NCBI GenBank assembly: GCA_016202305.1
Contig: JACQPB010000034.1
Span: forward strand, 27,262-91,261
Source: Candidatus Iainarchaeum sp.
GTDB taxonomy: Archaea > Iainarchaeota > Iainarchaeia > Iainarchaeales > Iainarchaeaceae
DNA: 64,000 nucleotides
Reading direction: 5' to 3'
Shown here piece after piece: positions 19,221 to 55,920 of the stretch; positions within the stretch are counted from its first letter, which is position 1; the number at the start of each line of letters is the position of its first letter. Below the pieces are notes generated by a model. That model worked only from the letters and a program-made list of their open reading frames with translations, was not told where the DNA came from and searched no databases. The position numbers and the translations under genes are program-made.

Positions 19221-19549
19221 ATTGTTTACACAGTTAGAAATGTTTATAAATATTCACTAACTTTACAAATATTCTAATTTTAGCTCGCCGGCCGCTATAA
19301 CCCTACGGGCTTTGCAAAGGCGCGAATCGGTGCGAAGTATGTGGCTGATAGATGTGGATTCTGGCTGAATAACTCCCTATTCACAACTGCTGTTGGGGTG
19401 TGGGTAGTTCGCAAGAAATGTAATTTACCGCCGCCTATTTGGGCTATTTTTTCTTCAACACTTGCCCTTTACCGCATTTTATGGTTTTTGTGTTATCCTG
19501 CTTTTAAATAGTTTTCCCGGCAGGCTTGCGCCGCCGGTATTTGCCTTAT

Positions 19550-19759
19550 TCATGCCTTCACTACTTGGACCTGTTTTGTGCCTGCCGTCGCGTCGAAGAG
19601 GTCTTCCTTTTTCTTCGTCCTGAAATTCGCGTATGGCCTGTACTTGGTCTTTGTCCATGCTTCCGGCTGCTTCTTCCTGAGTTTGAATTCCTGCTTCAGG
19701 AACTTGACGCGCAGCTGTTCGCTGGACTCCAGTCCTATGAGTTCATCGAGACTCGCCAT
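19550..19759 (-). CDS. small basic hypothetical protein
   Basis: 69 aa, Lys/Arg-rich, with no recognisable motif. Co-oriented downstream of the TRAM gene. Confidence 0.3.
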   Translation of the reverse strand: MASLDELIGLESSEQLRVKFLKQEFKLRKKQPEAWTKTKYRPYANFRTKKKEDLFDATAGTKQVQVVKA

Positions 19760-19794
19760 TTTCCAATCCCCCTTTGAGTTGCAAAACCAAGACT

Positions 19795-20136
19795 TTATTT
19801 CTCTTCTTCCGAGTCCACGGATTCGTCTCCCATGTCCTCGTCTTCTTCCGCATCTTCCTCGGATTCGTCTCCCGATTCCTCTTCCGAAGGCTCCTTGTCC
19901 TTGGGCTCTGCCTCGCCAATTACCTCTCCGAAGCTCACCTTTCCGCGGACGGCATTGACCTTGACCTTCACCTTGTCGCCCTTCTGGACATTCGGCACTA
20001 TTATGACATAACCCTCTATCTTCGCTATGCCATCACCCTTCTCCCCAATGCCCTCAATCTCGACATCATAGGATTCGCCTTCCTTCACGGGTATGTCGCC
20101 GAACCTGTTGCCCGGCCTCCTGTCGTTTCCCATCAT
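19795..20136 (-). CDS. TRAM domain protein with acidic C-terminal tail
   Basis: YDVEIEGIGEKGDGIAKIEGYVIIVPNVQKGDKVKVKV is a classic standalone archaeal TRAM OB-fold. The tail is poly-E/D/S. Confidence 0.65.
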   Translation of the reverse strand: MMGNDRRPGNRFGDIPVKEGESYDVEIEGIGEKGDGIAKIEGYVIIVPNVQKGDKVKVKVNAVRGKVSFGEVIGEAEPKDKEPSEEESGDESEEDAEEDEDMGDESVDSEEEK

Positions 20137-20489
20137 GTTTATTCACTCCTCCTGTAACGATGCGGACGCGGCAAGCACCTTTTTTTGAAGCGCGTAAGGC
20201 CCTGTAGAAAAAGGTATTTGCCGAAAATCCAATCCTACATATATGCTGCGCAAGTCATATTTAAAGTAGACGATTTACAAAGGCCCCAGCAGTCGGGGCC
20301 ATGCCAAAACGCCAGGAATCCCGTAAACGCCGTTAAATAGGCCATATGGCTCTGTAGCCCATGGGTTGGCAATAAGCGCGGGGTTGGTGGAGAGGCCCTC
20401 CAAATAGCCCTTATTATGTAGAAGTCAGCATGTTTTGCCCGCCAAAGCGCGTTTATACTGAATAGGGAAAGTGCCTTAAAAGAAGAGCT

Positions 20490-36295: not shown

Positions 36296-39200
36296 TCACA
36301 TCACTGTAGCCGCAAACAGCATGGTTATGGTTATCAGTGCCATCACGGCCAGGTATACGAGCGAGAATATGCTTATCGGCTTGCCGAAGTTTGCGAAGAG
36401 CAGGTAAAGCGTGCCGATTCCGAAAACCACGCCAAGCAGCCAGAGCACGTTAGCTATCACTGAGCTTCTTTTCACTACGTTCTTCATCCCTGTCTTTTCG
36501 AGGTCCTGCCTCACCTGCTGTATCGACTCGGCTATTTCCTCGAGGTCCTCTTCGTTCGGCAGGGATTTCTGCAGGTTCCCGAACCTGTTCAGGATGATTG
36601 TGTTGGTTTCCTGCTTGAGTTTCTGCATTTCCTGTCTTGTGACAAGTATGTTCTGGGTGAGCTGCTGCTGGACCTGCTGGGCCGTTGCCGCATTTTCCTG
36701 CCTCGCGAGTTGCCTTGCCTGCTCAGGCGTGACCCTTTGCAGCTCGGCTATTTCCTTGAGCGACTTCGCGAGCTTGCCTATTTCGGTGCCGGACTTCTGG
36801 GACTCCTCCTTGAGCAACTGCCTCACCTGCTCGTAGGCCGACCTCTGCTGTATGCCGAGCTCTATGACGGACTTTCCGAGGTCTTTCTTGATTTCCTCTA
36901 CCGCGGCCGGGGTTTCCTGCTTCACAATCTGCCTGAGCTGTTCCGGGTTGAGCCTTGGCAGCTGGCTCTTGAGGCCTTCAATCGTGCGCACTGCTTCCTG
37001 TCTCGCGAGCTGCACGGCCTGCTCTTTCTGTTTTTCCATTTCCTGCCTTGTGAGCTGTATTTCCTGCTTGGCCATCTTTTCGACGCTCGAGCGTATGTCC
37101 TGTACGCCTTTCTCGGTTTCCTTTCGTGCTGATTGCAATTCGTCCCTTGTGAGCTTCACGAGCTGTGTCTTCAGCTCTCCTGCGAGGCTGGAATTTTCGC
37201 GCCTCACGAGCTGGAGGAGTTCCGGCTTCTGCTTCTCAATTTCCTGCCTCGTGGCCGCAAGCTGTTCCTGTGCGAGCCTGGAAAGTTGTACTATCTGGGG
37301 CTTCTGTGCCTCGATTTCCCGTTTCATGCTCGCAAGCTCCTCCTTCCCGCTCTTGAGAAGCTGTGTGCTTGCGCTCTTCTGGTTCTCTATTTCCTGTTTG
37401 GTTGTCTGGACGTGTTCCCTGCTGAGCTGGAGCATCTGCGAGAACTGCGTGCGCTGCTTTTCCGCTTCCTGCCTTGCGCCCTGCAGTTGCTCGCCGAGTA
37501 TGCGCATCATCTGCTCTCTGAGGCTCTCCGTCTCCTTCTTTGTCTGCTGGGAGTATTCCTGCGACATCTTAGTTAACTGACCTTTCAGCGATTGCGCGGT
37601 GTTTGCAGATTCGGCCTTCACGAGTTGCGTAAGCTGTGGCTTCTGCCTTTCGAGTTCCATGCGCAGTTCAGCGAGTTCCGTCTGCGTAAGCTTCACGATT
37701 TCGCCCTTCATTTCCTCCGCGGTTTTTGCGGATTCCTGCTTCACTGCCTGCCTTATGCGCTCAGGAACTTCCTTCTGCTGGGTGTTGAATTCCTTAAGCG
37801 ATTTTGTAAGCTCATTCTGGACTTCCTTCACGAGTGCCGGTGTCTCGTCCTTCACCAGCAGCCTGAGCTGCTCATGGTTGAGTTTTGGCATGTTGCGCTT
37901 CATTTCCTCGATTGTGCGGGCCGCTTCCTGCCTCGTAATCTGCGCAGTCTGCGATTTTTGCTTTTCCATTTCCTGTCTTGCGGTATCTATCTCCTGGCGC
38001 GTAAGCTTCATGAGGCTGTTCCTGAGCTCCTCGGAAGCCTCGCTGGTTTCCTGTTTTGCGGCCGTCAGTTCTTCCTGTACAAATTTCATTATCTGGTTGC
38101 GGGTGTCCTGGGTGATTCTTGAGGCTTCCTGCTTCGAGAGCTGTGCGAGCAGCGGCTTCTGCCTCTCGATTTCCTGCCTTAGCTGCGTGAGCTCTTCCTG
38201 GGTAGTCTTCACTATGCTGTTGCGCAGCCCCTGGCTCGTGGATGCTGCCTCCTGCTTCATGAATTGCGTGAGCAGCGGCTTTTGCCTTTCCAATTCCTGC
38301 TTCAGCTGCTGCATCTGGTCCTGGTTTGTCTTGGAGAGCTGACTCTTGAGCTCCTGTACAGCTGCCGTGGCTTCCTGCCTGAGCATCTGCGCTATCTGCG
38401 GCTTCTGCTTTTCCATTTCCTGCCTTAGCAGCTGTATGTCCTGTGCCGCCTTGGCTACATTGCTCTTGAACTCAGATGGGTTGCCGAATTCGCGCCTCAC
38501 TATCTGCAGCACCTGTTCGGCGTTAAGCTTCTGCGAGCTCATTTCCTTTGCGGCATTCAGCAGTTGTTCCTTGGCCTCTTCGTTTGCCTTGGCCGTTTCA
38601 TTGCGCAGGCGCTCCACTTCGTGCATTGCTGTGGAAATTTCCTGCCTGAGCTCCTTCACTGGTGCGCTGGTCTCCTGCTTCACCAGTTGCGCTATCTGTG
38701 GCTTCTGCCTCTCGATTTCCTGCCTCAGGGTGGTTATTTCCTGCGAGGCTTTGAGCGCCTGTGCCCTGAGCTCCTGCGCGCTCGCGGCGTACTCGCGCCT
38801 TACAATCTGGGTTATCTGTTCGGGGTTCAGTTTCTGGTTCCTTATGTCCTCGACTGCGCGCGCGAACTGCTGCTTTGTTTCCTCTGCCGCCCTCAGGCTT
38901 TCCTGCCTGATTTGCTGGGCATCCATGAGCGCCTTCGCGACCTGCTGGCGCATTTCCTGCGCTGGCCCGATTTCGCCTTTTATGTGCTGGAACTGCTCTT
39001 CAGCCGCTTTTGTGAACTGCTTCCTGATGTCCTCGGTCGCATACTTCGTTTCCTGCTTGAGTTGCTCCGCCACTGCCATGGCCTCTTGCTTTATGGTCTG
39101 CTCGAACTCAGGCTTCTGCTTCTCTATTTCCTGCTTTATCTGCTTCCTCAGCTGGCTTGCCTGGTCGAGCGCGGTTTCCATCATGCGCTGCTTCAGCTCC

Positions 39201-40057
39201 TCTGCGGTGCTTTCCGACTCGCGCTTCACAATCGCCTCTATTTCCGGCTTCTGCTTTTCGGTTTCCTGTTTTGCAATCTGCTTTATCTCGAGCACGAGTT
39301 CCAGCAGCTGGTCCTGGTTTGTCTTGGCCTGGCCGTTGAGGTCCCTTATAGTCTTGGCGAGCTGCTGTCTCAGGTCCTCGGTTGCCGACATGGCTTCTTC
39401 CTTGACCTGCTGCGTGACGTTCGGCAGCTCTTTCTGTATCTCCATCTTGAGTGTGCGCTGTATGTCTATGACCTGGTCCTGCGCGAGCTTGCTTTGCACG
39501 CTGACGTCCTTGAGGGACCTCTTGAGTTCGAGCACCTGGTTCTGGAGCGACTTGTTCTGGTCGGAGGTGCTTTTTTGGTAGTCCTTGATGTTGGTGATGA
39601 AGTTCTTGGTTATCTGGTGCCTGAGGTCCTCGGTGATGTTGATTGCCTCTTCCTTGACCTGCTGGACGAGGTTCGGCATCTCCTTCTCTAGCTCGCTCCT
39701 CACCGTGTCGTTGATTTGCTGTATCTGGTCCTCGGATGGGAGTCCCGGGCCGGTTTCCTTGATGTTGCCGATTATCGTCTTGGTTATCTGGTGCCTGAGG
39801 TCCTGTGTGGCGTTGGAGGCCTCTTCTTTTATCGCCTGGGAAATAGCCGGCCTCTGGCTCTCTATCTGGTCCTCGACTATCTTCTTGAGTTCGGCCTTGA
39901 GGAGGTTGAAGGTGTCTGCCTGCGCGAGAAGCAGGAGTTTCTTGGCCTTGTCCATGCTTACTCCGAGGTCGCGGAGCGTGCTGAGTATTTTATCCTCGCT
40001 TTCACCGTCGCGCACCATCTGGTCAATAGTGTCTATGATGCTAGGTTCCCTGGCCAT
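36296..40057 (-). CDS. giant repetitive coiled-coil protein with C-terminal membrane anchor (two TM helices)
   Basis: 1253 aa, almost entirely heptad-rich Q/E/K/L sequence. It has at least 15 copies of a ~30-aa unit, QE(I/M)E(K/R)QKPxxxQxxKQE...TxxLxxQ. The C-terminus has two hydrophobic helices (VIANVLWLLGVVFGIGTLYLLF and ISIFSLVYLAVMALITITMLF). Confidence 0.7.
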   Translation of the reverse strand: MAREPSIIDTIDQMVRDGESEDKILSTLRDLGVSMDKAKKLLLLAQADTFNLLKAELKKIVEDQIESQRPAISQAIKEEASNATQDLRHQITKTIIGNIKETGPGLPSEDQIQQINDTVRSELEKEMPNLVQQVKEEAINITEDLRHQITKNFITNIKDYQKSTSDQNKSLQNQVLELKRSLKDVSVQSKLAQDQVIDIQRTLKMEIQKELPNVTQQVKEEAMSATEDLRQQLAKTIRDLNGQAKTNQDQLLELVLEIKQIAKQETEKQKPEIEAIVKRESESTAEELKQRMMETALDQASQLRKQIKQEIEKQKPEFEQTIKQEAMAVAEQLKQETKYATEDIRKQFTKAAEEQFQHIKGEIGPAQEMRQQVAKALMDAQQIRQESLRAAEETKQQFARAVEDIRNQKLNPEQITQIVRREYAASAQELRAQALKASQEITTLRQEIERQKPQIAQLVKQETSAPVKELRQEISTAMHEVERLRNETAKANEEAKEQLLNAAKEMSSQKLNAEQVLQIVRREFGNPSEFKSNVAKAAQDIQLLRQEMEKQKPQIAQMLRQEATAAVQELKSQLSKTNQDQMQQLKQELERQKPLLTQFMKQEAASTSQGLRNSIVKTTQEELTQLRQEIERQKPLLAQLSKQEASRITQDTRNQIMKFVQEELTAAKQETSEASEELRNSLMKLTRQEIDTARQEMEKQKSQTAQITRQEAARTIEEMKRNMPKLNHEQLRLLVKDETPALVKEVQNELTKSLKEFNTQQKEVPERIRQAVKQESAKTAEEMKGEIVKLTQTELAELRMELERQKPQLTQLVKAESANTAQSLKGQLTKMSQEYSQQTKKETESLREQMMRILGEQLQGARQEAEKQRTQFSQMLQLSREHVQTTKQEIENQKSASTQLLKSGKEELASMKREIEAQKPQIVQLSRLAQEQLAATRQEIEKQKPELLQLVRRENSSLAGELKTQLVKLTRDELQSARKETEKGVQDIRSSVEKMAKQEIQLTRQEMEKQKEQAVQLARQEAVRTIEGLKSQLPRLNPEQLRQIVKQETPAAVEEIKKDLGKSVIELGIQQRSAYEQVRQLLKEESQKSGTEIGKLAKSLKEIAELQRVTPEQARQLARQENAATAQQVQQQLTQNILVTRQEMQKLKQETNTIILNRFGNLQKSLPNEEDLEEIAESIQQVRQDLEKTGMKNVVKRSSVIANVLWLLGVVFGIGTLYLLFANFGKPISIFSLVYLAVMALITITMLFAATVM
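36900..39300. repeat. dispersed in-frame direct repeats (~35-bp core GGCTTCTGCYTYTCSATTTCCTGCC and derivatives) inside the giant gene
   Basis: At least 10 copies visible on the + strand at irregular 70-450 bp spacing. Each encodes the QEIE(R/K)QKP motif. Confidence 0.7.
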
Positions 40058-41852: not shown

Positions 41853-42254
41853 TCAGAGCAGCTTGAGGTGCTTCGTGAACCCGTCTATCTCGCTTTCCGG
41901 TGCGGGGCCAATAGCAATGCACGTGATTGTCCCGGATTCCAGCTGCGTCCTTCCCGCGTCCTTGACGAGTGCTGTAGGGAGCGCCTTTTTCGCTTTCTCG
42001 AAAATCTCGAGCAGTTCCTTCTCGCTGCCCGCCTTGAGCACGACCTTGGCTGTCCCCGTGGCCTTCCATTCCTCCACCCATCGCGGGTTCACCCTCAAGG
42101 ATTTCTCGTAAGCGTCCAGGGAAGCGTGGCTGCATTGGGCCGCGATTTTGCCCTTGCCCATCTTGAGGTCTGAGCGCACTACTATCGCCTGCTTGAACTG
42201 CATGGACAAAAAATGGAGCAACCGGAATTTAATACTACCCCAAAAAACCTTCAA
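41853..42254 (-). CDS. pth2: peptidyl-tRNA hydrolase Pth2 (archaeal type)
   Basis: VVRSDLKMGKGKIAAQCSHA...CIAIGP is canonical PTH2. Confidence 0.85.
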   Translation of the reverse strand: MKVFWGSIKFRLLHFLSMQFKQAIVVRSDLKMGKGKIAAQCSHASLDAYEKSLRVNPRWVEEWKATGTAKVVLKAGSEKELLEIFEKAKKALPTALVKDAGRTQLESGTITCIAIGPAPESEIDGFTKHLKLL

Positions 42255-42660
42255 AAATATTGGCTGCGGTTATTTCGGGGTGTCTTTCAAAGCTGCCTGT
42301 GTCCTCTGTCACAATCGATGTGACCCCATTCCTTTCCATGGTGGCAATCAGCAACGCGTCCCAGAATGGTATTCTGTGCTCTGCACTTATTTTAAGTGCC
42401 AGTACCGAATCAGTGTAATTGTCCTGAATGAGGTGGAATCCATTTGCAAAATTCTCTGCGGCTTCGTGTATTTTTTTTGCTTCAATTTTTTTCTTCAGGC
42501 ACACAGAAATGAATTCCCTGATGTTCTGGAGAGAGAGGAAATACCTGTTGCCATCATTCTCTATGCCACTTAGCCATGCATTTGTTACAGCCTGCTTTTC
42601 CGGTTCCTTTGTGTCGATTGCATAAACCAGTATATTTGTATCCACTAGAAAGTCACTCAT
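42235..42660 (-). CDS. PIN-domain toxin (VapC-like)
   Basis: FLVDTNILVYAID at the N-terminus and TEDTGSF near the C-terminus. The start is taken at MSDFLVD. It overlaps pth2 by 20 nt. Confidence 0.6.
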   Translation of the reverse strand: MSDFLVDTNILVYAIDTKEPEKQAVTNAWLSGIENDGNRYFLSLQNIREFISVCLKKKIEAKKIHEAAENFANGFHLIQDNYTDSVLALKISAEHRIPFWDALLIATMERNGVTSIVTEDTGSFERHPEITAANIFEGFLG

Positions 42661-42886
42661 AGGCCTCAGCCCTTGAAAATTTCCCAATGCCGAGGTTCTT
42701 TGCGTTTTTTGCCATTTTAAGGATCCGGCCGAAGGCTTCCTTCCTTGATTTTTCCCTTTCAAGAAGGTCTACGGCGTCCTCGGCGGTATTTGAGATTGCG
42801 CCCTTTTTGTCTCCATACATATCCTTTGCCAGTTTTCGCAGTTTTTTATCATGGTTATCATCCATGAATAAAACTATCTGTGGCAT
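42653..42886 (-). CDS. putative antitoxin (VapB-like), partner of the PIN gene
   Basis: 77-aa charged protein overlapping the PIN start. A palindromic operator lies upstream. Confidence 0.4.
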   Translation of the reverse strand: MPQIVLFMDDNHDKKLRKLAKDMYGDKKGAISNTAEDAVDLLEREKSRKEAFGRILKMAKNAKNLGIGKFSRAEAYE

Positions 42887-46123: not shown

Positions 46124-47074
46124 TCATGCCGTCATCGCGAGCCCTATGGTTGCGGCTATCACGGCCGCTGCTGCCAGTGCCTGGTGCCTGGCCAGTTTTT
46201 CGCGGTTTGCCGAGACTCCGAGGAGGACGGCTACCGCAACATACCCTTCGGTTATGGCTGTTATTATAGAGAGTTCGCCGCCGGAAACCGCGGCCGCGTA
46301 GAGGAGCCAGCCGAGGACCGCGGTCAGGGCTGTTGCGGCCGAGAGCTTCATGCTTGACGCAACCTTTGCTGGCATGGCTTGCAGGCGCTTCTGCCTCCAC
46401 AGGAGCGCGCCTGACAGCAGTGCGCTCACGGTCCAAGGGAACCATATCGCGATTGCGGGCGAGGCCTGCCGCGAGGCTGCGGCCGTGAGGAAGTTCATGG
46501 CCGCGAATATGAGGGCGGCGAGGAGCGCGAGCGCCGCGCCTTTCTCGACTTTGCCGAAAATCCTGCGCGCATCGAGGGTTTCGAGGGACACGAGGGCCGT
46601 TCCTGCAATGACCGCGGCTATGAGCGCCCACTGTGCAGTGCCTATGGCGTCCCCGAAGAACATGATGCCGAGGATTATAGTGAACGGCAGCTCCATCACG
46701 AGCACGGCGTCAATCACGGAGAGCTTGCCCGCCCTGAGGGCCTCGAAGCTCACGATGCCGCTCAGCCATCCTATCGCGCCGAGCGTTAGCATCAGCGGGA
46801 TGCTTGCGGTGGTCAGGCTGGCGATGTCGTGCAGCACGAGCGGGAGCAGCAGCACGGCCGCGGTAAGGTCAATCAGGAGCAGCGTCTCGAGGTTGCCGAT
46901 TATCCTGCATAGCTTCTGTATGAGGTAGTCGGCCGCGCCCCATAGCAGCATCACGGCGAAAGCGGCAAGGATGGCATAGCTCATGCATGATTTTTGCAGC
47001 GCCATGTTCATTAATGTTAGTTTCCCGCACCGGCAATGAGCTCCCCTCTCCTTTAAAAGGCCGGGAACACACAT
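46124..47074 (-). CDS. EamA/DMT family transporter
   Basis: About 10 TM helices in a two-repeat EamA organisation. Confidence 0.7.
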   Translation of the reverse strand: MCVPGLLKERGAHCRCGKLTLMNMALQKSCMSYAILAAFAVMLLWGAADYLIQKLCRIIGNLETLLLIDLTAAVLLLPLVLHDIASLTTASIPLMLTLGAIGWLSGIVSFEALRAGKLSVIDAVLVMELPFTIILGIMFFGDAIGTAQWALIAAVIAGTALVSLETLDARRIFGKVEKGAALALLAALIFAAMNFLTAAASRQASPAIAIWFPWTVSALLSGALLWRQKRLQAMPAKVASSMKLSAATALTAVLGWLLYAAAVSGGELSIITAITEGYVAVAVLLGVSANREKLARHQALAAAAVIAATIGLAMTA

Positions 47075-47080
47075 TATTTC

Positions 47081-48145
47081 ATGACGGTTTCAGCGGTCAT
47101 ACAGGAAACGGTCAACGCGATTCATTCCTCGGAGCAGGGGAAGAAGGCCATGGCCGAAAGGCTTTTGCCGCTCAAGGGCCGCGCATTCGAAATTTCCGCA
47201 GAGATGCGGGAGGAAAGGCTCGTTTCAAAAGTGCGGGGCTGGGTTCCTGACTGCAGGATTGCTGGCGTCGACTCGGGTTTTGTGGCGAAGCGCCTCGCAT
47301 CTGTTGATCTTGTGCTCGTCAGGGCAATGGGGGTGGTCTTTGATTACAGCAAAGGCGTCCTTGCGTCCGCCAGCTACCATCCGGGCTATTTCCGGTTCCC
47401 GGAGCCACACCTGAGCTTTCCGGCTCTGGAGCAGGACGAGGTCGAGCAGAGCAAGAGCCTGTTGCGCCTGCACGAGGAGCTCGGGGCCGCGAAAAAGCTC
47501 ATAGAAAAGCACTCGCCGAAATACCTCTTCCTCGATGGCAGCATCGTGCCGCAGTACCAGGACAAGCCGAGGCGCGAGTCCGCGCTGACGGGAAAGTACG
47601 CAGACCTCGTTTCCGGCTTCGATTCGTTGTATGCGCTCGCTGAAAAGAATGCATGCACGCTCATTGCCACGGTGGAGGACAGCAGGGGCAGGCGCTTCAT
47701 GGAGCTCCTCTCCGGCCTCGCAGGCTCGCCAGTCGCGGCGATGCTCGACCCGTCATTCCTGGATTATTACCTTGATGTCGGGGAGCGCACCTGCGCCTTC
47801 ACATACACAAAGGACATCGAGAAGCACCCGGTGCTGCAGGACTTCAACTCGAAGTGGGCCGGCTCGATTCATGGCCTCTACCTCAAGCCCGCGCCGCTTG
47901 ACAGGCCGCTGCGCTGCGAGTTCATATGCCACGGGGACGTCGCCGAAAAAGCGGACGAGATAGCTTCCGTCGCGATGGCCCTCAGCTCGATGCACCGCGA
48001 GTATGCCTATCCTTCTGTGCTGATAGAGGCCGACCTGCGCGCGAAGCTCAGCGGGGACGAAATAGACATAGTGTACAACAAGATAATGGACAAGCTCGGC
48101 GCCGGCGTGAGGCTCAGGATGCGCAGGGAGAACAGGCCATTCTGA
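47081..48145 (+). CDS. nurA: NurA 5'-3' nuclease
   Basis: RNase-H-like NurA motifs IAGVDSGF and LFLDGSI. Positioned upstream of herA. Confidence 0.6.
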   Translation: MTVSAVIQETVNAIHSSEQGKKAMAERLLPLKGRAFEISAEMREERLVSKVRGWVPDCRIAGVDSGFVAKRLASVDLVLVRAMGVVFDYSKGVLASASYHPGYFRFPEPHLSFPALEQDEVEQSKSLLRLHEELGAAKKLIEKHSPKYLFLDGSIVPQYQDKPRRESALTGKYADLVSGFDSLYALAEKNACTLIATVEDSRGRRFMELLSGLAGSPVAAMLDPSFLDYYLDVGERTCAFTYTKDIEKHPVLQDFNSKWAGSIHGLYLKPAPLDRPLRCEFICHGDVAEKADEIASVAMALSSMHREYAYPSVLIEADLRAKLSGDEIDIVYNKIMDKLGAGVRLRMRRENRPF

Positions 48146-48193
48146 GGTAAGATTTTTATATTGAAAAGTAAGATATTGTATATGTGATGTAAG

Positions 48194-48445
48194 ATGTATG
48201 AAACAACCCTTTCATCAAAAGGGCAGTTGGTGCTGCCCGCAAAGGCGCGTGCCGAAAGGAAGCAGCGGCCCGGCACAAAATTCAAGGTTTTCCCTACGCC
48301 TTTCGGGTACGAGCTGATAGAAATTCCGAAAAATCCGCTAAAGGCTCTTTCAGGCCTTGCAAGCCACTTGGATATTTCTTCAGCAGACATAAAAAAGATG
48401 AGGAGAGAGGATGACAAAAGAAGGGAAAAACTCTTTGGTATTTGA
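48194..48445 (+). CDS. AbrB/MazE-family antitoxin
   Basis: LSSKGQLVLPAKAR is a swapped-hairpin motif. Overlaps the downstream PIN gene. Confidence 0.6.
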   Translation: MYETTLSSKGQLVLPAKARAERKQRPGTKFKVFPTPFGYELIEIPKNPLKALSGLASHLDISSADIKKMRREDDKRREKLFGI

Positions 48446-48821
48446 CACTTCCGCAATGCTCAAACTGCTCAAGAATGAGGCCGGACACGAATCAGTTTCC
48501 ACAATCTTGGCTTCGGCTGTCGGTCGCACGAGGTGTTTGGCGAGCATTCTGAGCATTCATGAGCTTGTCTGGTCAGTCGGCCGCAGCGATTTGAAGGCAA
48601 CGGCTTCCGCTGTTTCATATTTTGAAGAGGTATTGAAGTTTGTGCCGCAAGACAGCAAAGACGCCGTCAACTCGGCCAATCTGAGGCTGCGGTACCGGCA
48701 TCTGGGGCTTTCTTCTGCCGATGCCTTCATTATCCAGCTTGGGATTGACAATGCTGCCGAAATAATCACCTGCGACAAAGCATGGCTCGGCGTGAAAGAG
48801 GCGAAAGTGAGGGTTGTGTGA
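48411..48821 (+). CDS. PIN-domain toxin VapC
   Basis: LVFDTSAML at the N-terminus and ITCD near the C-terminus; 136 aa. Confidence 0.65.
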   Translation: MTKEGKNSLVFDTSAMLKLLKNEAGHESVSTILASAVGRTRCLASILSIHELVWSVGRSDLKATASAVSYFEEVLKFVPQDSKDAVNSANLRLRYRHLGLSSADAFIIQLGIDNAAEIITCDKAWLGVKEAKVRVV

Positions 48822-48828
48822 GGAGATT

Positions 48829-48948
48829 TCATGACCTGCCCGCGCTGCCGCTCGAGGATGATGAAGGAGGCCCCTGACCTGAAGGGCCGCCAGTACAGGT
48901 GCCCCAACTGCGGGTATGAGGGGCCGGCACCTGTTGGATTGATGTAAT
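48829..48948 (+). CDS. zinc-ribbon small protein (39 aa)
   Basis: MTCPRCRSRMMKEAPDLKGRQYRCPNCGYEGPAPVGLM has two CxxC pairs. Read manually; too short for the ORF track. Confidence 0.45.
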
Positions 48949-48949
48949 T

Positions 48950-50518
48950 TTGTTGGCTTTGGTGTTGTTGTTGTCTGAAAAACAAGGGGAGGAAATCGGC
49001 ACAGTGATAAGTTCGCCCGAGGGCCCTTCGCCGAACAGTGTGGACCTCATAGTGAATGCAGGCATACTCCATCGCGGCCAGTTCGTTGAAATGGATTATG
49101 CGCAGGGCACGCTCGTCTGCCTCGTGAACAATGTCCTGAAGAGCAACAAGTACTTCGAGCGCTTCGAATCCGTGAAAGAGTACGAAAGCTCCGGCAGGAA
49201 GCTCTTCGAGCAGTTCCCGACGCACGAGTGGGAGTACCTCGTCGCAATGACAAGGCCGCTTGGCGTGTTCAGTGAGGGGCTCGTGAAGCGCTCCACTTTC
49301 CCGCCATCACCCGGGACGAAAGTGAGGGTCGCGGCACGCGAGACGCTTGAAAAGTTCCTGGGCTTGGATTCGGAGAAAGGCCTGCACCTCGGGGAGATTG
49401 AGCACCACAATACTCTGGTGAAAATAAATTTGTCACGCCTTTTGCAAAAGCACCTTGCCATTTTGGCGATGTCCGGCGCGGGAAAATCGGTTTTGTCCGC
49501 AGTGATTATTGAGGAACTGCTCCAGAGGAAAAAAGAAAACGGCCGTATCGGAGTCGTGGTGATGGATGCGCACGGCGAGTACCGTGCATTCGCCGAGCCG
49601 GTGCGCGACGGGAAAAGCGTTGACTTTTCATCAAAGACAAAGTTTGTGCGCGCAACCGATGTGCAGATTGGCGTCCCAAAGCTCTCCATCGGGCTGTTCG
49701 CGGCTCTCATTCCCGGCCTCTCCGCGCCGCAGAAGCGCGACCTTGCGAGGGTGATTGACAAGCTCAGGGCGGAGATGAAGGGTGGCCTCGGCCCTTTCGA
49801 TTTCAACGCGGTGAAATCCGAAGTTTTGAATGATGAGGACATAAAGGGTGCGACAAAGGATGCGCTCATCGGCTGGATAATGTCGCTCGAGCAATTGGGC
49901 CTCTTCGGCAAGACCGACAATCCCGGCATAGCCGACCTCGTAAGGCCGGGCCAGCTTACAGTGATTGACCTCAGCGACGTGATTGAGCTGAAGAAGAAGC
50001 AGATTATCGTGGCTTACTATGCGCGCAAGCTCTTTGATGAGCGAAGGCGCAACAAGGTTCCGCCCTTCACGCTCATATGCGAGGAAGCCCACCAGCTGGC
50101 CCCTGAAAATGTATCAAAGGAGGGTTCGATAAGCAAGCATGTGATAGAAACAATAGCGCGCGAAGGGAGGAAGTTCGGCGCGGGCATATGCCTGATTTCG
50201 CAGAGGCCCGTGAACCTGTCCACTACGGCTTTGTCGCAATGCGGCACCCATATTATCCTGCGTGTCACCAACCCTTATGACCTTGACCATATCAAGCAGA
50301 CGAGCGAGGGCATAGACCAGCGCACCCTTGAGATGATAACTTCGCTGCGCACCGGCGAGGGCATAATTGTAGGGGAAGCCGTGAATTACCCCGTCTTCTT
50401 CAAAGTGAGGAAGAAGCTTTCGCAGGACTCGGGGCGCGAGGCCACGCTTGAGAAGGCCGCTGTCGATTTCGAGGAGTCGCGTGACGCTTCAAGGAAGGAC
50501 ATCGAGGACCTTCTCTGA
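48950..50518 (+). CDS. herA: HerA DNA helicase/translocase (FtsK-HerA superfamily)
   Basis: HAS-barrel N-terminus, Walker A MSGAGKSV, Walker B VVVMDAHGE and ICEEAH. Putative TTG start. Confidence 0.8.
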   Translation: MLALVLLLSEKQGEEIGTVISSPEGPSPNSVDLIVNAGILHRGQFVEMDYAQGTLVCLVNNVLKSNKYFERFESVKEYESSGRKLFEQFPTHEWEYLVAMTRPLGVFSEGLVKRSTFPPSPGTKVRVAARETLEKFLGLDSEKGLHLGEIEHHNTLVKINLSRLLQKHLAILAMSGAGKSVLSAVIIEELLQRKKENGRIGVVVMDAHGEYRAFAEPVRDGKSVDFSSKTKFVRATDVQIGVPKLSIGLFAALIPGLSAPQKRDLARVIDKLRAEMKGGLGPFDFNAVKSEVLNDEDIKGATKDALIGWIMSLEQLGLFGKTDNPGIADLVRPGQLTVIDLSDVIELKKKQIIVAYYARKLFDERRRNKVPPFTLICEEAHQLAPENVSKEGSISKHVIETIAREGRKFGAGICLISQRPVNLSTTALSQCGTHIILRVTNPYDLDHIKQTSEGIDQRTLEMITSLRTGEGIIVGEAVNYPVFFKVRKKLSQDSGREATLEKAAVDFEESRDASRKDIEDLL

Positions 50519-50624
50519 TTCTCGGAAAGGCTCGCTGTTCGCGGATGTGAGCCAGCGCAGGTGAAGTGAGGGTATTCCTCTCGGCAAAGCCTTAAATGTA
50601 TTCATATAGAATGGATACGGTTCC

Positions 50625-51236
50625 ATGTTCGACCTCTTCGGCAAGGTGCAGGACCTTCTCCTGGGCTTTGGGTACACTGCGCTTTTCGCCATTGTATTCG
50701 CGGAGTCGGGTCTTTTCTTCGGTTTTTTCCTTCCAGGCGATTCGTTGCTGTTCACGGCCGGCCTCATGGCTTCACAGGGCCTCTTTGACGTTAAAATCGT
50801 TCTGGTCGGTGTCGCGGTTTCGGCTATCCTCGGTGACCAGGTCGGCTACTGGATGGGCTCGAAATTCGGCAGGGGTTTCTTCAACAGGCCTGACTCCATA
50901 TTCTTCAATCCGAGGCACATAGAGGACGCCGAGGCTTTCTATGCGAGGCACGGCAAGAAGACAATCGTGCTGGCGAGGTTTGTTCCTGCGGTGAGGACTT
51001 TCGCCCCGATTGTCGCCGGCATGGCGCACATGGATTATCGGACGTTCGTTTCATACAATGTCTTGGGCGGGGTGCTTTGGTCCGTTGTTTTCGTGCTGGC
51101 CGGATACTTCCTCGGCCGTGCATTCCCGGAATCCGGAAACCTGATAGCCTACATTGTCATTGCAATTGTCCTGGTAACTACCGTCCCTATAGTGATGGAG
51201 TTCCTGAAAAGGCTGAAAAATAGGGGAGGGCGCTGA
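50625..51236 (+). CDS. DedA-family membrane protein
   Basis: DedA/SNARE-associated core (FFLPGDSLLFTAG...VLARFVP.VRTF). Confidence 0.8.
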   Translation: MFDLFGKVQDLLLGFGYTALFAIVFAESGLFFGFFLPGDSLLFTAGLMASQGLFDVKIVLVGVAVSAILGDQVGYWMGSKFGRGFFNRPDSIFFNPRHIEDAEAFYARHGKKTIVLARFVPAVRTFAPIVAGMAHMDYRTFVSYNVLGGVLWSVVFVLAGYFLGRAFPESGNLIAYIVIAIVLVTTVPIVMEFLKRLKNRGGR

Positions 51237-51302: not shown

Positions 51303-52799
51303 ATGCTCCCAAGCACGCTGTACCTTTCACGCGTATCATACTCTTCGGAGAAGCGGCAGATAATAGTCGAGTTTTCAAACCGCTGTGAGAGGGTTTCCCA
51401 GAGGCACCAGTTCTTCCCCAAATTTTTTTTCCAGCTAGGCGCTATTCCAGAGGCGGATTTCAGGGCTGTAGTGGCAGGTTTTGCCCCGCAGAAGTTCAAG
51501 GTGACTGTGAATGACGGAGTGGCATCCGTTTTTGCGGCAAGCTTCTCCGACTTGAAGGCTCTGAACAATTTCCTTGGAAAGTGCTTTGGCTCCAGGTGCA
51601 ATATAGTGGAGCCGGAGAGGCAGTTCCTCATGGAGCGTGGCTGGAATTATTTCGATTCTTTCTCCAGGGATTCAGAGGGCGTGCACAGGCTGGAGAGGTT
51701 CGATTTCCCCGATGTCAATCTCCCGTTCCTTTCAGCCGCTTTCAAGGAAACCGTCACAGAACTGCTCCGGAGCAATGATGCGCTTGCAAACGACCTGCTT
51801 TCAAAGGCCGCGCTGTCCCGCATTCTCCGTGTTCCTCTAATGGGGCGCGAGGCTGGCGACCCTCCTGTGGAAATTTTGCTCGAAAACATTTTTTTCACGG
51901 CTGGCATGCCTCTGCCTGTAGGTGCATCGTCGCCTTCCGGTCGTATTAATTTTTTTCCGGGAAAGGGCGAGATTGACTTTTCACGCCTGGTTGCCATGCT
52001 GTCGTCGAGGCCGTTCAGCAACATAGGGTTTGAAACAATGAACTGCCAGTGCTGCAGGCCTTCTTCCCCGGATGCGCGGAACATTCTTCCTTCCGGTCTC
52101 GTAAAAGTCAGGTTCCTGCGTGAGGGCTTTTACTTCAGTCCTTTTTCCATGGTTTGGGCGCACGAGTTCCATGAATCAATGCCTTTCAGGGAACTGCGTG
52201 AATCGCGGATGAGGGAGTACTGCCATCAGGTTCCGCCTGCGGGGCCTTTCAGCAGGGGCTCCGAAGGATTCGTTATGCTGATTGACGCTGTTTCCCTGGA
52301 GAGGCAGGGTTTTGTGGAAGTGCTCCGGGACTACTCTCCCGCATGGTTTTGCACGGTCAATGAAGGCTCCCTTTCCCGCGAGGTGAATTCTCTCCTGCGT
52401 TGCCTGTCATCGCTTGAATCTCTCATACATTCCGAGGGCGCGAAGGTGGCCGCTTCCAACGGGCTTTTCTTTTCGCAGGCAATCGGGAGCAGCCCGGAGT
52501 TTTTCTATCGCAAGGCGCTCAAGGGCGTGGTTTCCGCGCTGCTTTCCTCGCTGCCTGCGCAGCTCATAACTCCAGGTGGCAGGTTTTTCTCGAAAAATGT
52601 CGCGATGGCGCTGGAAGCGCTTAATGGCGGCATCGCCCGTGATTTCGAGGATTCGGTCATAAACGGCTGTGAAAGGGTGATTTTCCCGTGTTTTTCCAGG
52701 GCCGTCGTGGATAAGGCCTCGATAATGACGCTCGCAAAGCGGTTTTCCGAGTTATATAATGTGGAAATGCCATTGTTGGGCATCAGGTCAAATTCATAG
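51303..52799 (+). CDS. hypothetical protein (498 aa, no recognisable motif)
   Basis: Long ORF at normal GC with no Walker, HExxH or phosphoesterase motifs. Co-oriented upstream of rpoK–rps17e. Confidence 0.4.
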   Translation: MLPSTLYLSRVSYSSEKRQIIVEFSNRCERVSQRHQFFPKFFFQLGAIPEADFRAVVAGFAPQKFKVTVNDGVASVFAASFSDLKALNNFLGKCFGSRCNIVEPERQFLMERGWNYFDSFSRDSEGVHRLERFDFPDVNLPFLSAAFKETVTELLRSNDALANDLLSKAALSRILRVPLMGREAGDPPVEILLENIFFTAGMPLPVGASSPSGRINFFPGKGEIDFSRLVAMLSSRPFSNIGFETMNCQCCRPSSPDARNILPSGLVKVRFLREGFYFSPFSMVWAHEFHESMPFRELRESRMREYCHQVPPAGPFSRGSEGFVMLIDAVSLERQGFVEVLRDYSPAWFCTVNEGSLSREVNSLLRCLSSLESLIHSEGAKVAASNGLFFSQAIGSSPEFFYRKALKGVVSALLSSLPAQLITPGGRFFSKNVAMALEALNGGIARDFEDSVINGCERVIFPCFSRAVVDKASIMTLAKRFSELYNVEMPLLGIRSNS

Positions 52800-52865: not shown

Positions 52866-53072
52866 ATGCCGAATTTGACTCGTTTTGAGGTGACGCGCCT
52901 TATAAGTGCCAGGGCGTTGCAGATTTCCTTGGGCGCGCCGGCGCTTGTCAAGGCCCATAAAGGCGATGTGCCGCTTGACATCGCAAGGCTGGAGTTCGAG
53001 AAGCGGGTAATTCCGCTTGCCGTTCTTCGCGAGTTTCCCGATGGCCACGTGGAAAAAATAGACGTCAATTGA
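52866..53072 (+). CDS. rpoK: DNA-directed RNA polymerase subunit Rpo6 (RpoK/Rpb6)
   Basis: TRFEVTRLISARALQISLGAPALV is the canonical Rpb6/omega fold. Confidence 0.8.
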   Translation: MPNLTRFEVTRLISARALQISLGAPALVKAHKGDVPLDIARLEFEKRVIPLAVLREFPDGHVEKIDVN

Positions 53073-53087
53073 GTTGCTGGTGTTGCA

Positions 53088-53282
53088 ATGGGCAAGGCGG
53101 TTCCACAGAAGGTCAAGAGCAAGGCAAAGGCCCTGTTTGCGGCTTATCCTGAGCAGGTAAGTGAAGACTTCGAATCCAACAAGAAATTCGTGGACACTTT
53201 TGACATGCCTCTCAGCATGACAGAGCGCAACCTGGTAGCGGGATTCCTCACCCGAATGAAGATAAAGGCCAAAGCCGCCTGA
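53088..53282 (+). CDS. rps17e: 30S ribosomal protein S17e
   Basis: MGK...VKSKAKALFAAYPEQVSEDFESNKKFV matches S17e ([23 protein letters not shown]). Confidence 0.65.
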   Translation: MGKAVPQKVKSKAKALFAAYPEQVSEDFESNKKFVDTFDMPLSMTERNLVAGFLTRMKIKAKAA

Positions 53283-53310: not shown

Positions 53311-55362
53311 TCATTCTGAAACAACTTTTGTCACGCCGTCCTTGCTCTTCTCGCGTTCCAGCACGTAAAGTTTTCCGCTTGCGGCGTTTTCCATCTCCTT
53401 GTCATGCGTGATTATGAACACCTGTTCTATGAGCGCTGGCAGTCTGCCCCCTAGCATGCCTGCAAGCTCCTTCACCGCATTCGCGTCGAGGTTGTGCGTC
53501 GGCTCGTCGAGTATTATCCACCCGAGGTTTTGCGTGAGCACGAGCGAAGTGGCAATCCTTATCGTGAGCGCGGCAGCGCTCCTCTCCCCGCCTGAAAGTA
53601 TGCCGTCTACCCTCACCCATTCGCCGTTCAGCTGCCTCACCATTATCTCGTAGCTACCCTCTTCCACTGAAATCCTCACGCTCGTGAAGTCCTCGTAAGG
53701 ATACACGTTGGGCCATATCTCGTCCATGGCCTCGTTTATTGTCTGTATCATCGCGCCTCTCATCTCCGCCTGGGTTGACCTGAGGGCGGAGGCAAATATC
53801 GCTAGCTTCTCCAGTGCCTTCTCAGTGGCGGCCACCTGGCCTTCAAGCGTCTTTACCCGCTCTCCGGCTTCGCGCATGATTTTCGCGGATGATTCGATTT
53901 CCTTGAGGAGTTCCTCCGCGGCTTTCAGCTCTGATTTCAGTTTTGCTGTTCTTTCCGAGACTGAATAGAAAGCGGCGCGTTCCTTGGCAAGCCCATTTTC
54001 GTCGAAGCCGAGTTTCCTTATTTGCGCGTTGGTTTCATTGGTCTTTGCATCAAGCTCTTCCAGTTGCTTCTTGCAGCGCTCCGCCTCTTCTGTTGCCTCC
54101 ATTGCGTGCCTCAGTTCCAGTAGCGAGCCTTGCATGGTTTCCTTTTCGGCATCAAGCTTCCCGGTTTTTTCCTGCAATTCACGGGCATTTTTTTGCGCGG
54201 CGGAGAGCTTCTTTTCCAGCTCTGCTATAGATTTCCGTGCTTTCTCCGACTCTTCCTCGAGTTCCTCCCCCAGTTTTTCACGGTCATGCTTATCCATAGG
54301 CCTCTTGCATACGGGGCACTTGCCGCTAATAGTTTCTGCGTTGCGCAGGCTTTTGCCGGCGTTTTCAAGGGTATTCTTTTGCACTGCGAGGCCTTCCCTT
54401 GCAATGGCAATGTCTTTTTCAGCGTGTTCCTTTTCAGTGGCGAGTTCCTTCTTCAGGTGCGTGAGTAATGCCAGTTTTTTCTCTGTTTCCGCAATGCTTT
54501 CCTTTGCCTTTTCGTGGCCTGTGCGGTCAAGCTTCCGCTTCAGCTTTGCGAGCTGTTCGGAAAGGCTTTCTTGCCTAGACTTTGCCGTTATCAGGGCTTC
54601 ATGGAGCTTGTTGTGAAGTTTTTGCTTCTCCTCCATTGCCTTCAGGCGTGCGGTTGCCGCCTTCCCTTCTTCCTGTAGCCTTGCAAGCTCTTCCGCATTT
54701 TTCCCGAGTTCGTGCTTTTTTTCCAGTGCCCTTTTTTCATATTCTGCAAGAGACTTAGGGTCCACCTTCTTTTTTTGCTCCGCGAGGAATGCTTTCCTGT
54801 CATCCGCCGTTTTCCTGAGCCTGTTTGACAGCGTGACGCTGTTGGCCCTCACTCTTTCGTACTTGTCCAGCCCAAGCAGTTCGTCGAGCTTCTCCTTCCT
54901 CTGGGCGGCTGACAGCTTGAGGAAATAATCTATCTGGTTCTGCTCGGAATAAATGGCGCGGCTGAACAGGTCATACGTGGCCTCGAGAGTTTCCTCGATT
55001 TTTTTCGTGACTTCCGTCATCTTAGGGCCGGAAATTATCCTTGTGCCCTCCCGGAGGTAGGCTTCACTGATGCCGTTGCGCTTCACGGTCCTTTCTACCT
55101 CGTAGTCCTTTCCTGCATATTCGAATGAAAGTGTCACGGTGCCCTTTTCCTGCTTTATGGGCTTTGCCATTATGGTTTCCTCCAGGCTCACTTTGCGCGC
55201 CGCCTGCGAGGGGAATGTTCCGTACAACGCGAAGGAAATCGCGTCCATGAGGCTCGACTTTCCGCTGCCCATGTGCCCCACGATTACATTGGTGCCCCTG
55301 ACGAACTCGAACGTGCTGTCGAGGTGGGTTTTCCAGTTCTGCAGTCTTATGCTCTTAATCAT
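53311..55362 (-). CDS. rad50: Rad50 ATPase (short form, 683 aa)
   Basis: Walker A GHMGSGKSS, a central coiled coil with a CPVC zinc hook, signature LSGGERSAAAL, Walker B ILDEPT, and an H-loop ITHD. Confidence 0.8.
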   Translation of the reverse strand: MIKSIRLQNWKTHLDSTFEFVRGTNVIVGHMGSGKSSLMDAISFALYGTFPSQAARKVSLEETIMAKPIKQEKGTVTLSFEYAGKDYEVERTVKRNGISEAYLREGTRIISGPKMTEVTKKIEETLEATYDLFSRAIYSEQNQIDYFLKLSAAQRKEKLDELLGLDKYERVRANSVTLSNRLRKTADDRKAFLAEQKKKVDPKSLAEYEKRALEKKHELGKNAEELARLQEEGKAATARLKAMEEKQKLHNKLHEALITAKSRQESLSEQLAKLKRKLDRTGHEKAKESIAETEKKLALLTHLKKELATEKEHAEKDIAIAREGLAVQKNTLENAGKSLRNAETISGKCPVCKRPMDKHDREKLGEELEEESEKARKSIAELEKKLSAAQKNARELQEKTGKLDAEKETMQGSLLELRHAMEATEEAERCKKQLEELDAKTNETNAQIRKLGFDENGLAKERAAFYSVSERTAKLKSELKAAEELLKEIESSAKIMREAGERVKTLEGQVAATEKALEKLAIFASALRSTQAEMRGAMIQTINEAMDEIWPNVYPYEDFTSVRISVEEGSYEIMVRQLNGEWVRVDGILSGGERSAAALTIRIATSLVLTQNLGWIILDEPTHNLDANAVKELAGMLGGRLPALIEQVFIITHDKEMENAASGKLYVLEREKSKDGVTKVVSE

Positions 55363-55464: not shown

Positions 55465-55764
55465 CTACAGCAGCGTCATTCCCTCTATTTCCGCGTCCTC
55501 CACTTCCTCGAGCGCGGAAATCTCGGAAATAACCCTGTCAGGGAGGCTTTCGTCCTTGGAGTCTATCAGGATGCCTGCCTTGATGACCTCTACTCCGAAG
55601 CCTATAGGTTCGCGGCGCACGTCCTTGACTGCGCCAGATTTTATGCCTTTCACGGCCGCCACTGTTTCGTCAAGTTTTTCCATGTCCTTGGCGTTTATCC
55701 TTATTATGAGGAGTGTCTTGTCAGGCATACCAACCAGCCGAAAACCGTGAAGCCGCTTTTCCAT
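55465..55764 (-). CDS. ef1b: elongation factor 1-beta (aEF1b)
   Basis: 99 aa; the C-terminus EVEDAEIEGMTLL and the overall pattern match aEF-1beta. Confidence 0.85.
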   Translation of the reverse strand: MEKRLHGFRLVGMPDKTLLIIRINAKDMEKLDETVAAVKGIKSGAVKDVRREPIGFGVEVIKAGILIDSKDESLPDRVISEISALEEVEDAEIEGMTLL

Positions 55765-55920
55765 TCAAGGGCCGGTGAATCCGCAGCCTGGGCACTTGTA
55801 GGCGAGGCTCTTGGCCCTTGCCTCAAGGCTCCTTGTTATGCGCTCCTTGCATTGCGGGCAGTGGAACTCTACGAAGTCATTAGTGACTATCTTGTTCGTC
55901 GTTATGCATCGCTTTATCAT
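55765..55920 (-). CDS. zinc-ribbon protein (COG2888-like), 51 aa
   Basis: Manual read gives MIKRCITTNKIVTNDFVEFHCPQCKERITRSLEARAKSLAYKCPGCGFTGP. Its stop abuts the ef1b start, the conserved archaeal pairing. Confidence 0.5.
   Translation of the reverse strand: MIKRCITTNKIVTNDFVEFHCPQCKERITRSLEARAKSLAYKCPGCGFTGP

Follow-up and report, generated by a model that had tools for sequence, protein, structure and literature searches.

A putatively mobile, autoregulated vapBC cassette in the nurA–zinc ribbon–herA cluster of Candidatus Iainarchaeum sp.

The genes encoding the nuclease NurA and the ATPase HerA are co-oriented in a 64,000-nt stretch of the genome of the uncultured DPANN archaeon Candidatus Iainarchaeum sp. 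(contig JACQPB010000034.1, positions 27,262 to 91,261 of the forward strand; hereafter the window) and are separated there by a vapBC toxin–antitoxin (TA) module and a small zinc-ribbon gene. We consider it likely that the nurA–zinc ribbon–herA cluster is native and that a mobile, autoregulated TA cassette has settled in one of its permissive junctions. Only vapBC is an insert, and it is compositionally foreign, whereas the zinc-ribbon gene, judged by its codon composition and its occurrence in relatives, is a native and ancestral resident of the nurA–herA interval. The elements of the cluster follow one another in this order:

47081..48145, + strand: nurA, gene of a NurA-family nuclease (354 aa), assigned by Pfam PF09376 and by synteny with herA
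48146..48196, + strand: putative vapB promoter/operator with three GTAAGAT boxes (48147-48153, 48168-48174 and 48189-48195) 21 bp apart
48194..48445, + strand: vapB, gene of an AbrB/SpoVT-type antitoxin (83 aa; weak AbrB matches) with a conserved C-terminal SSxDIKKMRxEDD tail
48411..48821, + strand: vapC, gene of a PIN-domain toxin (136 aa; Pfam PIN, PF01850, E=6e-14)
48831..48947, + strand: zinc-ribbon gene ZnR-A (38 aa; CPRC-x17-CPNC) with a GGAG Shine-Dalgarno sequence 5 nt upstream
48971..50518 (frame open from 48950), + strand: herA, gene of a HerA/FtsK-type hexameric ATPase (515 aa from TTG 48971)

These open reading frames (ORFs) were found essentially where a sequence-only reading of the window had placed them. 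The co-oriented nurA (47081-48145) and herA (48950-50518) were confirmed by Pfam NurA and DUF87 matches, and the identification of an AbrB-type, a PIN and a CxxC..CxxC gene between them proved to be correct, except that the zinc-ribbon protein has 38 and not 39 aa. The same reading had treated everything between nurA and herA as a single low-GC insert of about 800 bp. GC is indeed low in the 48-bp nurA–vapB spacer (0.23), in vapB (0.46; GC at third codon positions, GC3, 0.49) and in vapC (0.51; GC3 0.58), and the low GC3 of vapBC recurred in all four genomes measured. The zinc-ribbon gene does not share this composition: its GC is 0.63, and its GC3 of 0.82 was the highest among the ten features compared (nurA 0.77, herA 0.71). 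Its inclusion in the low-GC insert was rejected on the basis of this host-like GC3 and of its distribution.

The surroundings of the cluster were compared in 80 genome loci with HerA relatives and in seven contigs of the closest relatives, which are referred to below by their L numbers. In 57 related loci, which belong to several archaeal phyla, nurA was found upstream of herA and in the same orientation. In the outgroups that have both genes (Hadarchaeota, Micrarchaeia and a metagenome-assembled genome (MAG) labelled Methanobacteriota) the spacer measures 9–45 bp. In Iainarchaeia its length varies between 4 bp and 5 kb (median 888 bp), and more than 150 bp of assorted cargo is present in 29 of the 36 loci. 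The cargo comprises HAD hydrolases, PTP/DSP-like phosphatases, a GNAT and a 23S_rRNA_IVP four-helix protein, and three kinds of TA-type genes have entered the same junction: the AbrB and PIN pair, MazF/PemK (L011 and L012, the latter with an antitoxin-like gene upstream of the toxin gene) and a different PIN (L023). Since this gap usually holds variable cargo in the lineage, the presence of a TA module there is not exceptional. The junction between herA and the next conserved gene, a 498-aa ORF, is likewise variable (median 660 bp). According to tblastn, the order nurA, herA, 498-aa ORF and convergent rad50 is conserved in Iainarchaeia, and the native layout of the clade can be described as nurA, small zinc-ribbon gene(s), herA, (cargo), an apparently degenerate PolB-like gene, rpoK/S17e and convergent rad50. 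The neighbourhood is a conserved scaffold with permissive junctions rather than a tight operon.

The vapBC genes stand directly after nurA in the window, in L082, L083 and L087 and on the metagenome contig L182, and the cassette begins 1 nt past the nurA stop codon. They are absent from at least six close relatives (L084, L055, L088, L002, L041 and L054), all of which keep nurA, the zinc-ribbon gene and herA. Across the carriers, protein identities amount to 40–79% for VapB and VapC, 65–81% for NurA and 76–85% for HerA. Although synonymous sites are saturated among the carriers (proportion of synonymous differences, pS, 0.55–0.85), both vapBC ORFs are intact, and the ratio of nonsynonymous to synonymous differences (pN/pS) is 0.15–0.53 for vapB and vapC taken together and 0.36–0.53 for vapC. 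An inert insert with degraded TA genes had also been envisaged in the sequence-only reading. Relatives do show the ribbon–herA arrangement without the TA genes, but the TA ORFs are not degraded; this candidate explanation was rejected, as they are intact and under selection. No convincing target-site duplication was found flanking the cassette, and on its right side the sequences part directly behind the vapC stop codon. Rfam and tRNA scans gave nothing near the locus, which argues against a tRNA-linked integration. At the position that vapBC occupies in its relatives, L084 has a 52-aa AbrB-like ORF (L084:5211-5369) with neither a PIN gene nor GTAAGA boxes; it is a regulator that stands alone or else the remnant of something different.

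The VapB N-terminus (SSKGQLVLPAKAR) looks typical of AbrB/SpoVT proteins. The window protein matched TIGR01439 with E=1.5e-4, below the cut-off, and its L082 ortholog scored exactly at the cut-off, while a profile of four orthologs, in whose alignment 31 columns are invariant, retrieved the AbrB regulators 2l66 and 5itj from the PDB at E=0.01. In VapC, the acidic tetrad D12, E51, D104 and D122 is invariant in four orthologs; the VapC profile gave no match in the PDB. The vapB and vapC genes overlap by 35 nt in the window and by 29–35 nt across the orthologs.

In the putative promoter/operator, a TATA-like box (TTTTTATAT, 48153-48161) is bracketed by GTAAGAT boxes, the third of which overlaps the vapB ATG, and these three are the only copies of GTAAGAT on either strand of the window. 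The layout box–TATA–box–box is conserved at the nucleotide level upstream of vapB in L082, L083 and L087, even though protein identities of VapB and VapC do not exceed 40–79%; it is also present in L182 and L201. A metagenome scan for the three-box operator returned at least 120 matches, nearly all of which were unrelated tandem repeats; VapB homologs accompanied the matches in L182 and L201 only. The latter locus (L201:9375-10103, − strand) lies in a nucleotidyltransferase/TA island on a GC-rich contig of another organism, encodes an AbrB-type VapB (90 aa) and a PIN VapC (141 aa) and has three GTAAGA boxes with 20–21-bp spacing. The occurrence of the same operator with an AbrB/PIN pair in this unrelated context indicates that the mobility unit consists of the promoter/operator, vapB and vapC.

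By analogy with its family, VapB would bind the three GTAAGAT boxes by its AbrB-type N-terminal domain. Since the boxes lie on both sides of the TATA box and reach into the start codon, such binding would be expected to repress the promoter of vapB itself. With its conserved C-terminal tail, VapB would block the PIN active site of VapC, and after the loss of VapB the toxin would be free to cleave RNA and to arrest growth.

The consequences of this arrangement for the downstream genes depend on the spacers. A gap of 9 nt, in which the GGAG Shine-Dalgarno sequence lies, separates the vapC stop codon from the zinc-ribbon ATG. The ribbon gene was thought to end 1 bp before the TTG start of herA; its stop codon TAA (48945-48947) is actually 2 nt before TTG 48950. 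The frame opened by that codon would encode 522 aa, and an exact look-up of this 522-aa sequence gave no entry, as the database protein has another start. However, 31 HerA homologs begin 4–7 residues before a conserved EEIGTV motif, and the herA start is almost certainly TTG 48971 (MSEKQGEEIGTV), in agreement with the 515-aa NCBI call. With this start, the spacer between the zinc-ribbon gene and herA is 23 nt. From 47000 to 50700, this strand has a single T5 run, namely the vapB TATA box itself. Considering the short spacers (9 and 23 nt) and the lack of another T5 tract, the vapB promoter probably reads into the zinc-ribbon gene and herA, which would thus probably be provided with a second, VapB-controlled promoter. 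In L082 (4505-4560) and L087 (1293-1345), a stable hairpin directly follows the nurA stop codon (-21 kcal/mol; z -4.2 and -3.5, respectively). The stem sequences of the two differ, yet both pair. The presence of this hairpin argues that the genes after nurA in these loci depend on internal promoters of their own. The window does not have this hairpin.

The TA module itself is ordinary, a further example of the known AbrB-type VapBC modules. It resembles other type II VapBC systems with an AbrB/SpoVT antitoxin in that a small antitoxin gene overlaps a PIN gene, the toxin has four acidic PIN residues, the antitoxin N-terminus appears AbrB-like, the putative operator, recognized at the sequence level, is repeated within the module's own promoter and the module is mobile between contexts. 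It differs from them by an operator made of three direct GTAAGAT boxes in 21-bp phasing around an archaeal TATA box and by its lodging between co-oriented repair genes, where it is placed to transcribe the downstream one. The cassette is nevertheless a clear archaeal case in which the promoter/operator of a mobile type II module can be read directly from comparative sequence data.

Another explanation for a TA module at this site is co-option into DNA repair, by which the module would addict the cell to the nurA–herA locus or serve as a damage or stress switch controlling resection. The intact state of the cassette at the same site in five genomes at saturating divergence, the entry of three TA-type kinds into the same junction and the vapB promoter positioned to drive herA would all fit such a role, and a comparable case is known from the E. 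coli dinB operon, in which the yafNO TA module is variably present (PMC3105422). The six relatives that keep nurA, the ribbon and herA without vapBC, the presence of the same cassette and operator in the unrelated archaeal TA island of L201, the equally rich cargo of other junctions in the neighbourhood and at least one more PIN pair in the window (42235-42886) speak against it, and genes of the chromosomal core have no need of an addiction module. We therefore regard co-option as rather improbable. The suggestion of the sequence-only reading that the TA stabilizes the locus is similarly unsupported, since at least six close relatives retain nurA and herA without it. The view of a TA module in a DNA-repair operon as something unusual was right about the presence of the module but overstated for this lineage in view of the 29 of 36 loci with cargo, the three kinds of TA and the dinB precedent. 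We take vapBC to be a mobile, selfish or stress-related module that has stayed intact over a long period and forms no part of the resection machine.

The cassette parallels E. coli dinB-yafN-yafO-yafP (PMC3105422, PMC2814082). In both cases a TA pair is embedded among DNA-damage-related genes and is flanked by genes that are conserved independently of it. Some strains carry the pair and others lack it cleanly, from which repeated losses have been inferred. In contrast to the archaeal cassette, the E. coli module is bacterial, SOS/LexA-controlled and of a RelE-like family, and it uses the operon promoter, whereas the window cassette brings its own.

The zinc-ribbon gene is the more useful result. 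In 21 Iainarchaeia loci, a ribbon gene occupies the nurA–herA interval; some of these loci have a TA module, but most do not. Two forms of the protein can be distinguished. Form A (37–43 aa) has the pattern MxCPxCxS…KGxQxxCxxCG[YF]xG, and its family hidden Markov model (HMM) detected a member in the nurA–herA interval of all 12 close-clade loci (E=1e-17 to 1e-23). Form B (57–80 aa) has an added C-terminal EKFRKxF helix and is paralogous to form A, the HMMs of the two forms cross-matching. Form B occurs in tandem with form A in L002, L041, L054 and L083, and alone in L005, L006, L009 (AR10), L010, L016, L018, L026, L029 and L034. L007 and L008 are the sole loci of the clade that have no ribbon, and none of the loci outside the clade has one. 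The four cysteines are invariant in 24 family members, and pN/pS of the ribbon was 0.21–0.44 in 9 of 10 close pairs. When the same pairs of genomes were compared, pS was lower for the ribbon (0.26–0.58) than for nurA, herA and vapBC (0.55–0.85), which could reflect strong codon bias or a constraint at the nucleotide level.

A search of 5.8 billion proteins with the ribbon profile yielded 80 small stand-alone proteins (38–132 aa). The best-scoring named matches came mostly from Diapherotrites/Iainarchaeum MAGs, and several matches appear to share contigs with herA matches or have adjacent locus tags (e.g. CL944_02650 and CL944_02655). Against RpoP, TFS, DUF1610/aS21, HVO_2753 and IS1595 the ribbon scored 16–23 bits, under the cut-offs of 24–80; what it shares with them is just the general CxxC…CxxC signature of ribbons. 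Like the archaeal zinc-finger micro-proteins (DUF1610/aS21, HVO_2753, RpoP and TFS), it is a basic protein of less than 80 aa with a single ribbon and two CxxC knuckles; unlike them, its family is confined to one Iainarchaeia clade and is positionally tied to nurA–herA. Taken together, these data point to a real, selected and lineage-specific micro-protein.

The ribbon gene directly precedes herA in 13 of the 21 loci (-17 to +55 nt), often overlapping it. Most plausibly, the ribbon protein is co-expressed with HerA or the NurA–HerA complex and acts on it. The proposal that the ribbon is a new HerA accessory subunit was strengthened by its conserved position, purifying selection and coupling to herA, and the protein can be considered a candidate for such a subunit.

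The ribbon could also work with the flanking PTP/DSP-like phosphatases instead of HerA or NurA, or be a generic nucleic-acid-binding micro-protein parked at this site. ZnR-A overlaps a phosphatase-like gene or lies within 12 nt of it in L084, L087, L088, L055 and L041, the phosphatase-like proteins form two related groups, and the weak matches to RpoP, TFS, DUF1610 and HVO_2753 would suit a generic ribbon. On the other hand, tblastn found no phosphatase-like gene anywhere in the window, ribbons without a phosphatase gene are present in L002, L003, L006, L029, L034, L054 and L083 as well, phosphatase genes in the nurA–herA interval never occur without a ribbon, and the ribbon stands immediately before herA in most loci, as noted above. 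We judge a partner other than HerA or NurA, or no partner at all, to be an unlikely, though not a far-fetched, explanation. As for the phosphatase-like genes themselves, those flanking the ribbon are located at L009:9148-9687, L087:2073-2591, L088:2840-3445, L041:6450-6974, L082:5410-5844, L084:5483-5908, L055:8301-8795 and L087:2731-3162. One of their two groups keeps the active-site motif HCx5R; the other, found downstream of ZnR-A, looks degenerate at this motif, and many of the proteins have a basic tail.

Several observations weigh against the reading of the locus as a mobile TA cassette in a cluster whose ribbon acts on HerA. The idea that the nurA–herA junction stands out as a special hotspot had to be rejected, since the junction between herA and the PolB-like gene is equally variable. 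The AbrB assignment is weak for the window VapB, which stays under the curated cut-offs. The vapBC carriers are not monophyletic in a neighbour-joining tree of NurA and HerA, and the VapB similarities (window with L083, L082 with L087) conflict with that tree, which the VapC identities do not follow either; vapBC may have been gained once, long ago, and then lost about five times, or it may have been exchanged between relatives. In five loci a phosphatase-like gene and in three loci other cargo intervene between the ribbon and herA, so the ribbon partner could be other than HerA. Finally, no fusion of the ribbon to NurA or HerA was present among the 80 profile matches.

The NurA and HerA proteins themselves are already known, whereas the nurA–ZnR–herA arrangement is new; a literature search on HerA or NurA in connection with DPANN archaea or with TA modules found nothing on it. 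The sequence-only reading had allowed for the NurA assignment to fail in profile searches, but the protein matched PF09376 with 38.3 bits against a cut-off of 21 (E=1.3e-9, profile positions 2-253 of 254). Among the acidic residues, D64 and E133 are invariant and D152 is nearly invariant in 21 homologs. Neither phmmer nor a 21-sequence profile retrieved a NurA chain from the PDB, and a single-sequence AlphaFold2 (AF2) model was too poor for use (pLDDT 43). The identification of NurA is based on Pfam and synteny. HerA matched DUF87 (PF01935, E=3.7e-28) and HerA_C, and it aligned over its full length (residues 35-479) with S. solfataricus HerA, 4d2i (E=1e-32). The Walker A GAGKS and Walker B EEAH motifs are invariant. 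The best NCBIfam match was the double-strand break (DSB)-repair helicase HerA (E=6e-45) with 154 bits; the equivalog cut-off is 800 bits, which identifies the window protein as a divergent member. Several HerA orthologs are about 850 aa long or gave split tblastn matches (L041, L054 and L034; P0009, P0018, P0069, P0084, P0092 and P0105), and most of the long ones have a LAGLIDADG domain (PF14528). These features indicate that the orthologs contain an intein, which the window herA does not.

A further conceivable reading is that the whole nurA–herA region is a defence island in which HerA–NurA acts against phages, as in HerA-based bacterial defence, with the TA modules, phosphatases and HEPN-like genes as defence cargo. 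The NCBIfam models of anti-phage HerA matched with E=5e-38, close to the E=6e-45 of the repair models, and the cargo includes both TA modules and the 23S_rRNA_IVP four-helix protein. Yet nurA–herA is syntenic across the 57 loci in which both were found, in several archaeal phyla, the conserved neighbourhood contains rad50 and the housekeeping genes for RpoK, S17e and EF-1beta, HerA is similar over its full length to the S. solfataricus repair protein, and much of the cargo (HAD hydrolases, GNAT, DedA) is unrelated to defence. A defence island is in our view a highly improbable explanation.

The conserved genes on the other side of herA, together with one cargo gene, are as follows:

50625..51236, + strand: gene of a DedA/VTT-domain membrane protein (Pfam VTT_dom, E=2.6e-21), cargo between herA and the PolB-like gene
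51303..52799, + strand: gene of a 498-aa 'hypothetical' protein with a putative degenerate family-B DNA-polymerase fold (AF2 and Foldseek)
53311..55362, − strand: rad50 (683 aa, short coiled coil, CPVC zinc hook; SMC_N, AAA_23 and Rad50_zn_hook), convergent with the herA cluster

The sequence-only reading had placed rad50 3 kb away and had noted that there was no mre11 gene in the window, and it was right on both counts. The rad50 gene, with its zinc hook, lies 2.8 kb downstream of herA, and its product matched the NCBIfam Rad50 model with E=3e-63. The Mre11 phosphoesterase motifs GNH[DE] and GDLFH were not found in any of the six frames of the window. No Mre11-like ORF was present within 10 kb on either side of herA in any Iainarchaeia locus, and the only loci with one were those of Undinarchaeota (L038 and L042). 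In S. solfataricus and P. furiosus, the HerA–NurA genes usually lie in a herA-mre11-rad50-nurA operon. The window agrees with these systems in having a DUF87/Walker HerA similar over its full length to 4d2i, an adjoining gene of a NurA-family nuclease and rad50 in the neighbourhood. It differs from them in that nurA precedes herA and the two genes are not contiguous, mre11 is missing from the window and from the 10-kb flanks in Iainarchaeia loci, rad50 is convergent and short (683 aa), and the neighbourhood includes, as conserved members, a small zinc-ribbon gene and an apparently degenerate PolB-like gene.

The 498-aa gene is kept between herA and rad50 in 43 of the related loci examined and in most Iainarchaeia loci, and its product has no sequence match in Pfam, NCBIfam or the PDB. 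An AF2 model built from a 16-sequence alignment reached pLDDT 89 and pTM 0.89, and in a Foldseek search of the PDB all 50 of the 50 matches listed were family-B DNA polymerases (best E 1.4e-8, prob 1.0, TMq 0.34–0.50). In a collinear but not significant hhalign alignment with Pfu Pol, EIDFS corresponds to motif A with its Asp kept, and ASNGLFF is paired with motif C DTDGLYA (DTD replaced by ASN). The model and the pairing of motif C with ASN suggest that the protein is a catalytically degenerate PolB-like polymerase. Like the inactivated PolB2 group (PMC4104785), the 498-aa protein combines a PolB fold and apparently degenerate motifs with a location among repair genes. It is, however, much shorter and not seen by Pfam DNA_pol_B, and the PolB2 neighbourhood consists of a radA-like gene and arCOG07300 (PMC4104785), as opposed to herA and rad50 here.

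The ribbon and the PolB-like protein could belong together in a distinct end-resection variant of one Iainarchaeia clade. The 38–80-aa ribbon would be a stoichiometric third subunit or regulator of NurA–HerA, the degenerate mini-PolB would take part in a Rad50 pathway without mre11 in the locus, and in the genomes that carry vapBC herA would be wired to the VapB-controlled promoter, so that the loss of the antitoxin under stress would give more resection capacity. We put this forward tentatively, as a scheme that is doubtful in its entirety. NurA–HerA has been described as a two-component machine; a lineage-specific third component would therefore be directly testable by co-expression. The ribbons form a conserved, selected micro-protein family that is tied to nurA–herA in one clade of DPANN archaea and that gene callers largely overlook. 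The PolB-like protein, with its well-folded model and its synteny with herA and rad50 in a neighbourhood without mre11, is a candidate for the DSB-processing organization of reduced DPANN genomes. Both the conserved ribbon and the PolB-like neighbour merit the attention of specialists.

The DedA/VTT-domain gene is present in some relatives only. Housekeeping genes flank rad50, with RpoK/Rpb6-like and S17e-like genes on one side (52866-53282, + strand) and the genes of EF-1beta and of a 51-aa zinc ribbon of the aS21/DUF1610 type on the other (55465-55920, − strand); this layout is kept in relatives. The pair at 42235-42886 (− strand), which is shared with L084, consists of a second PIN gene (175-aa ORF, PIN E=1e-12) and a 77-aa upstream partner and is probably another VapBC-type pair. 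An overlapping pair of 83- and 127-aa ORFs at 19526-20157 has no Pfam match. The 1253-aa ORF at 36296-40057 (− strand) contains many coiled-coil-like repeats (EIEKQKPQIAQL) and a hydrophobic C-terminal segment.

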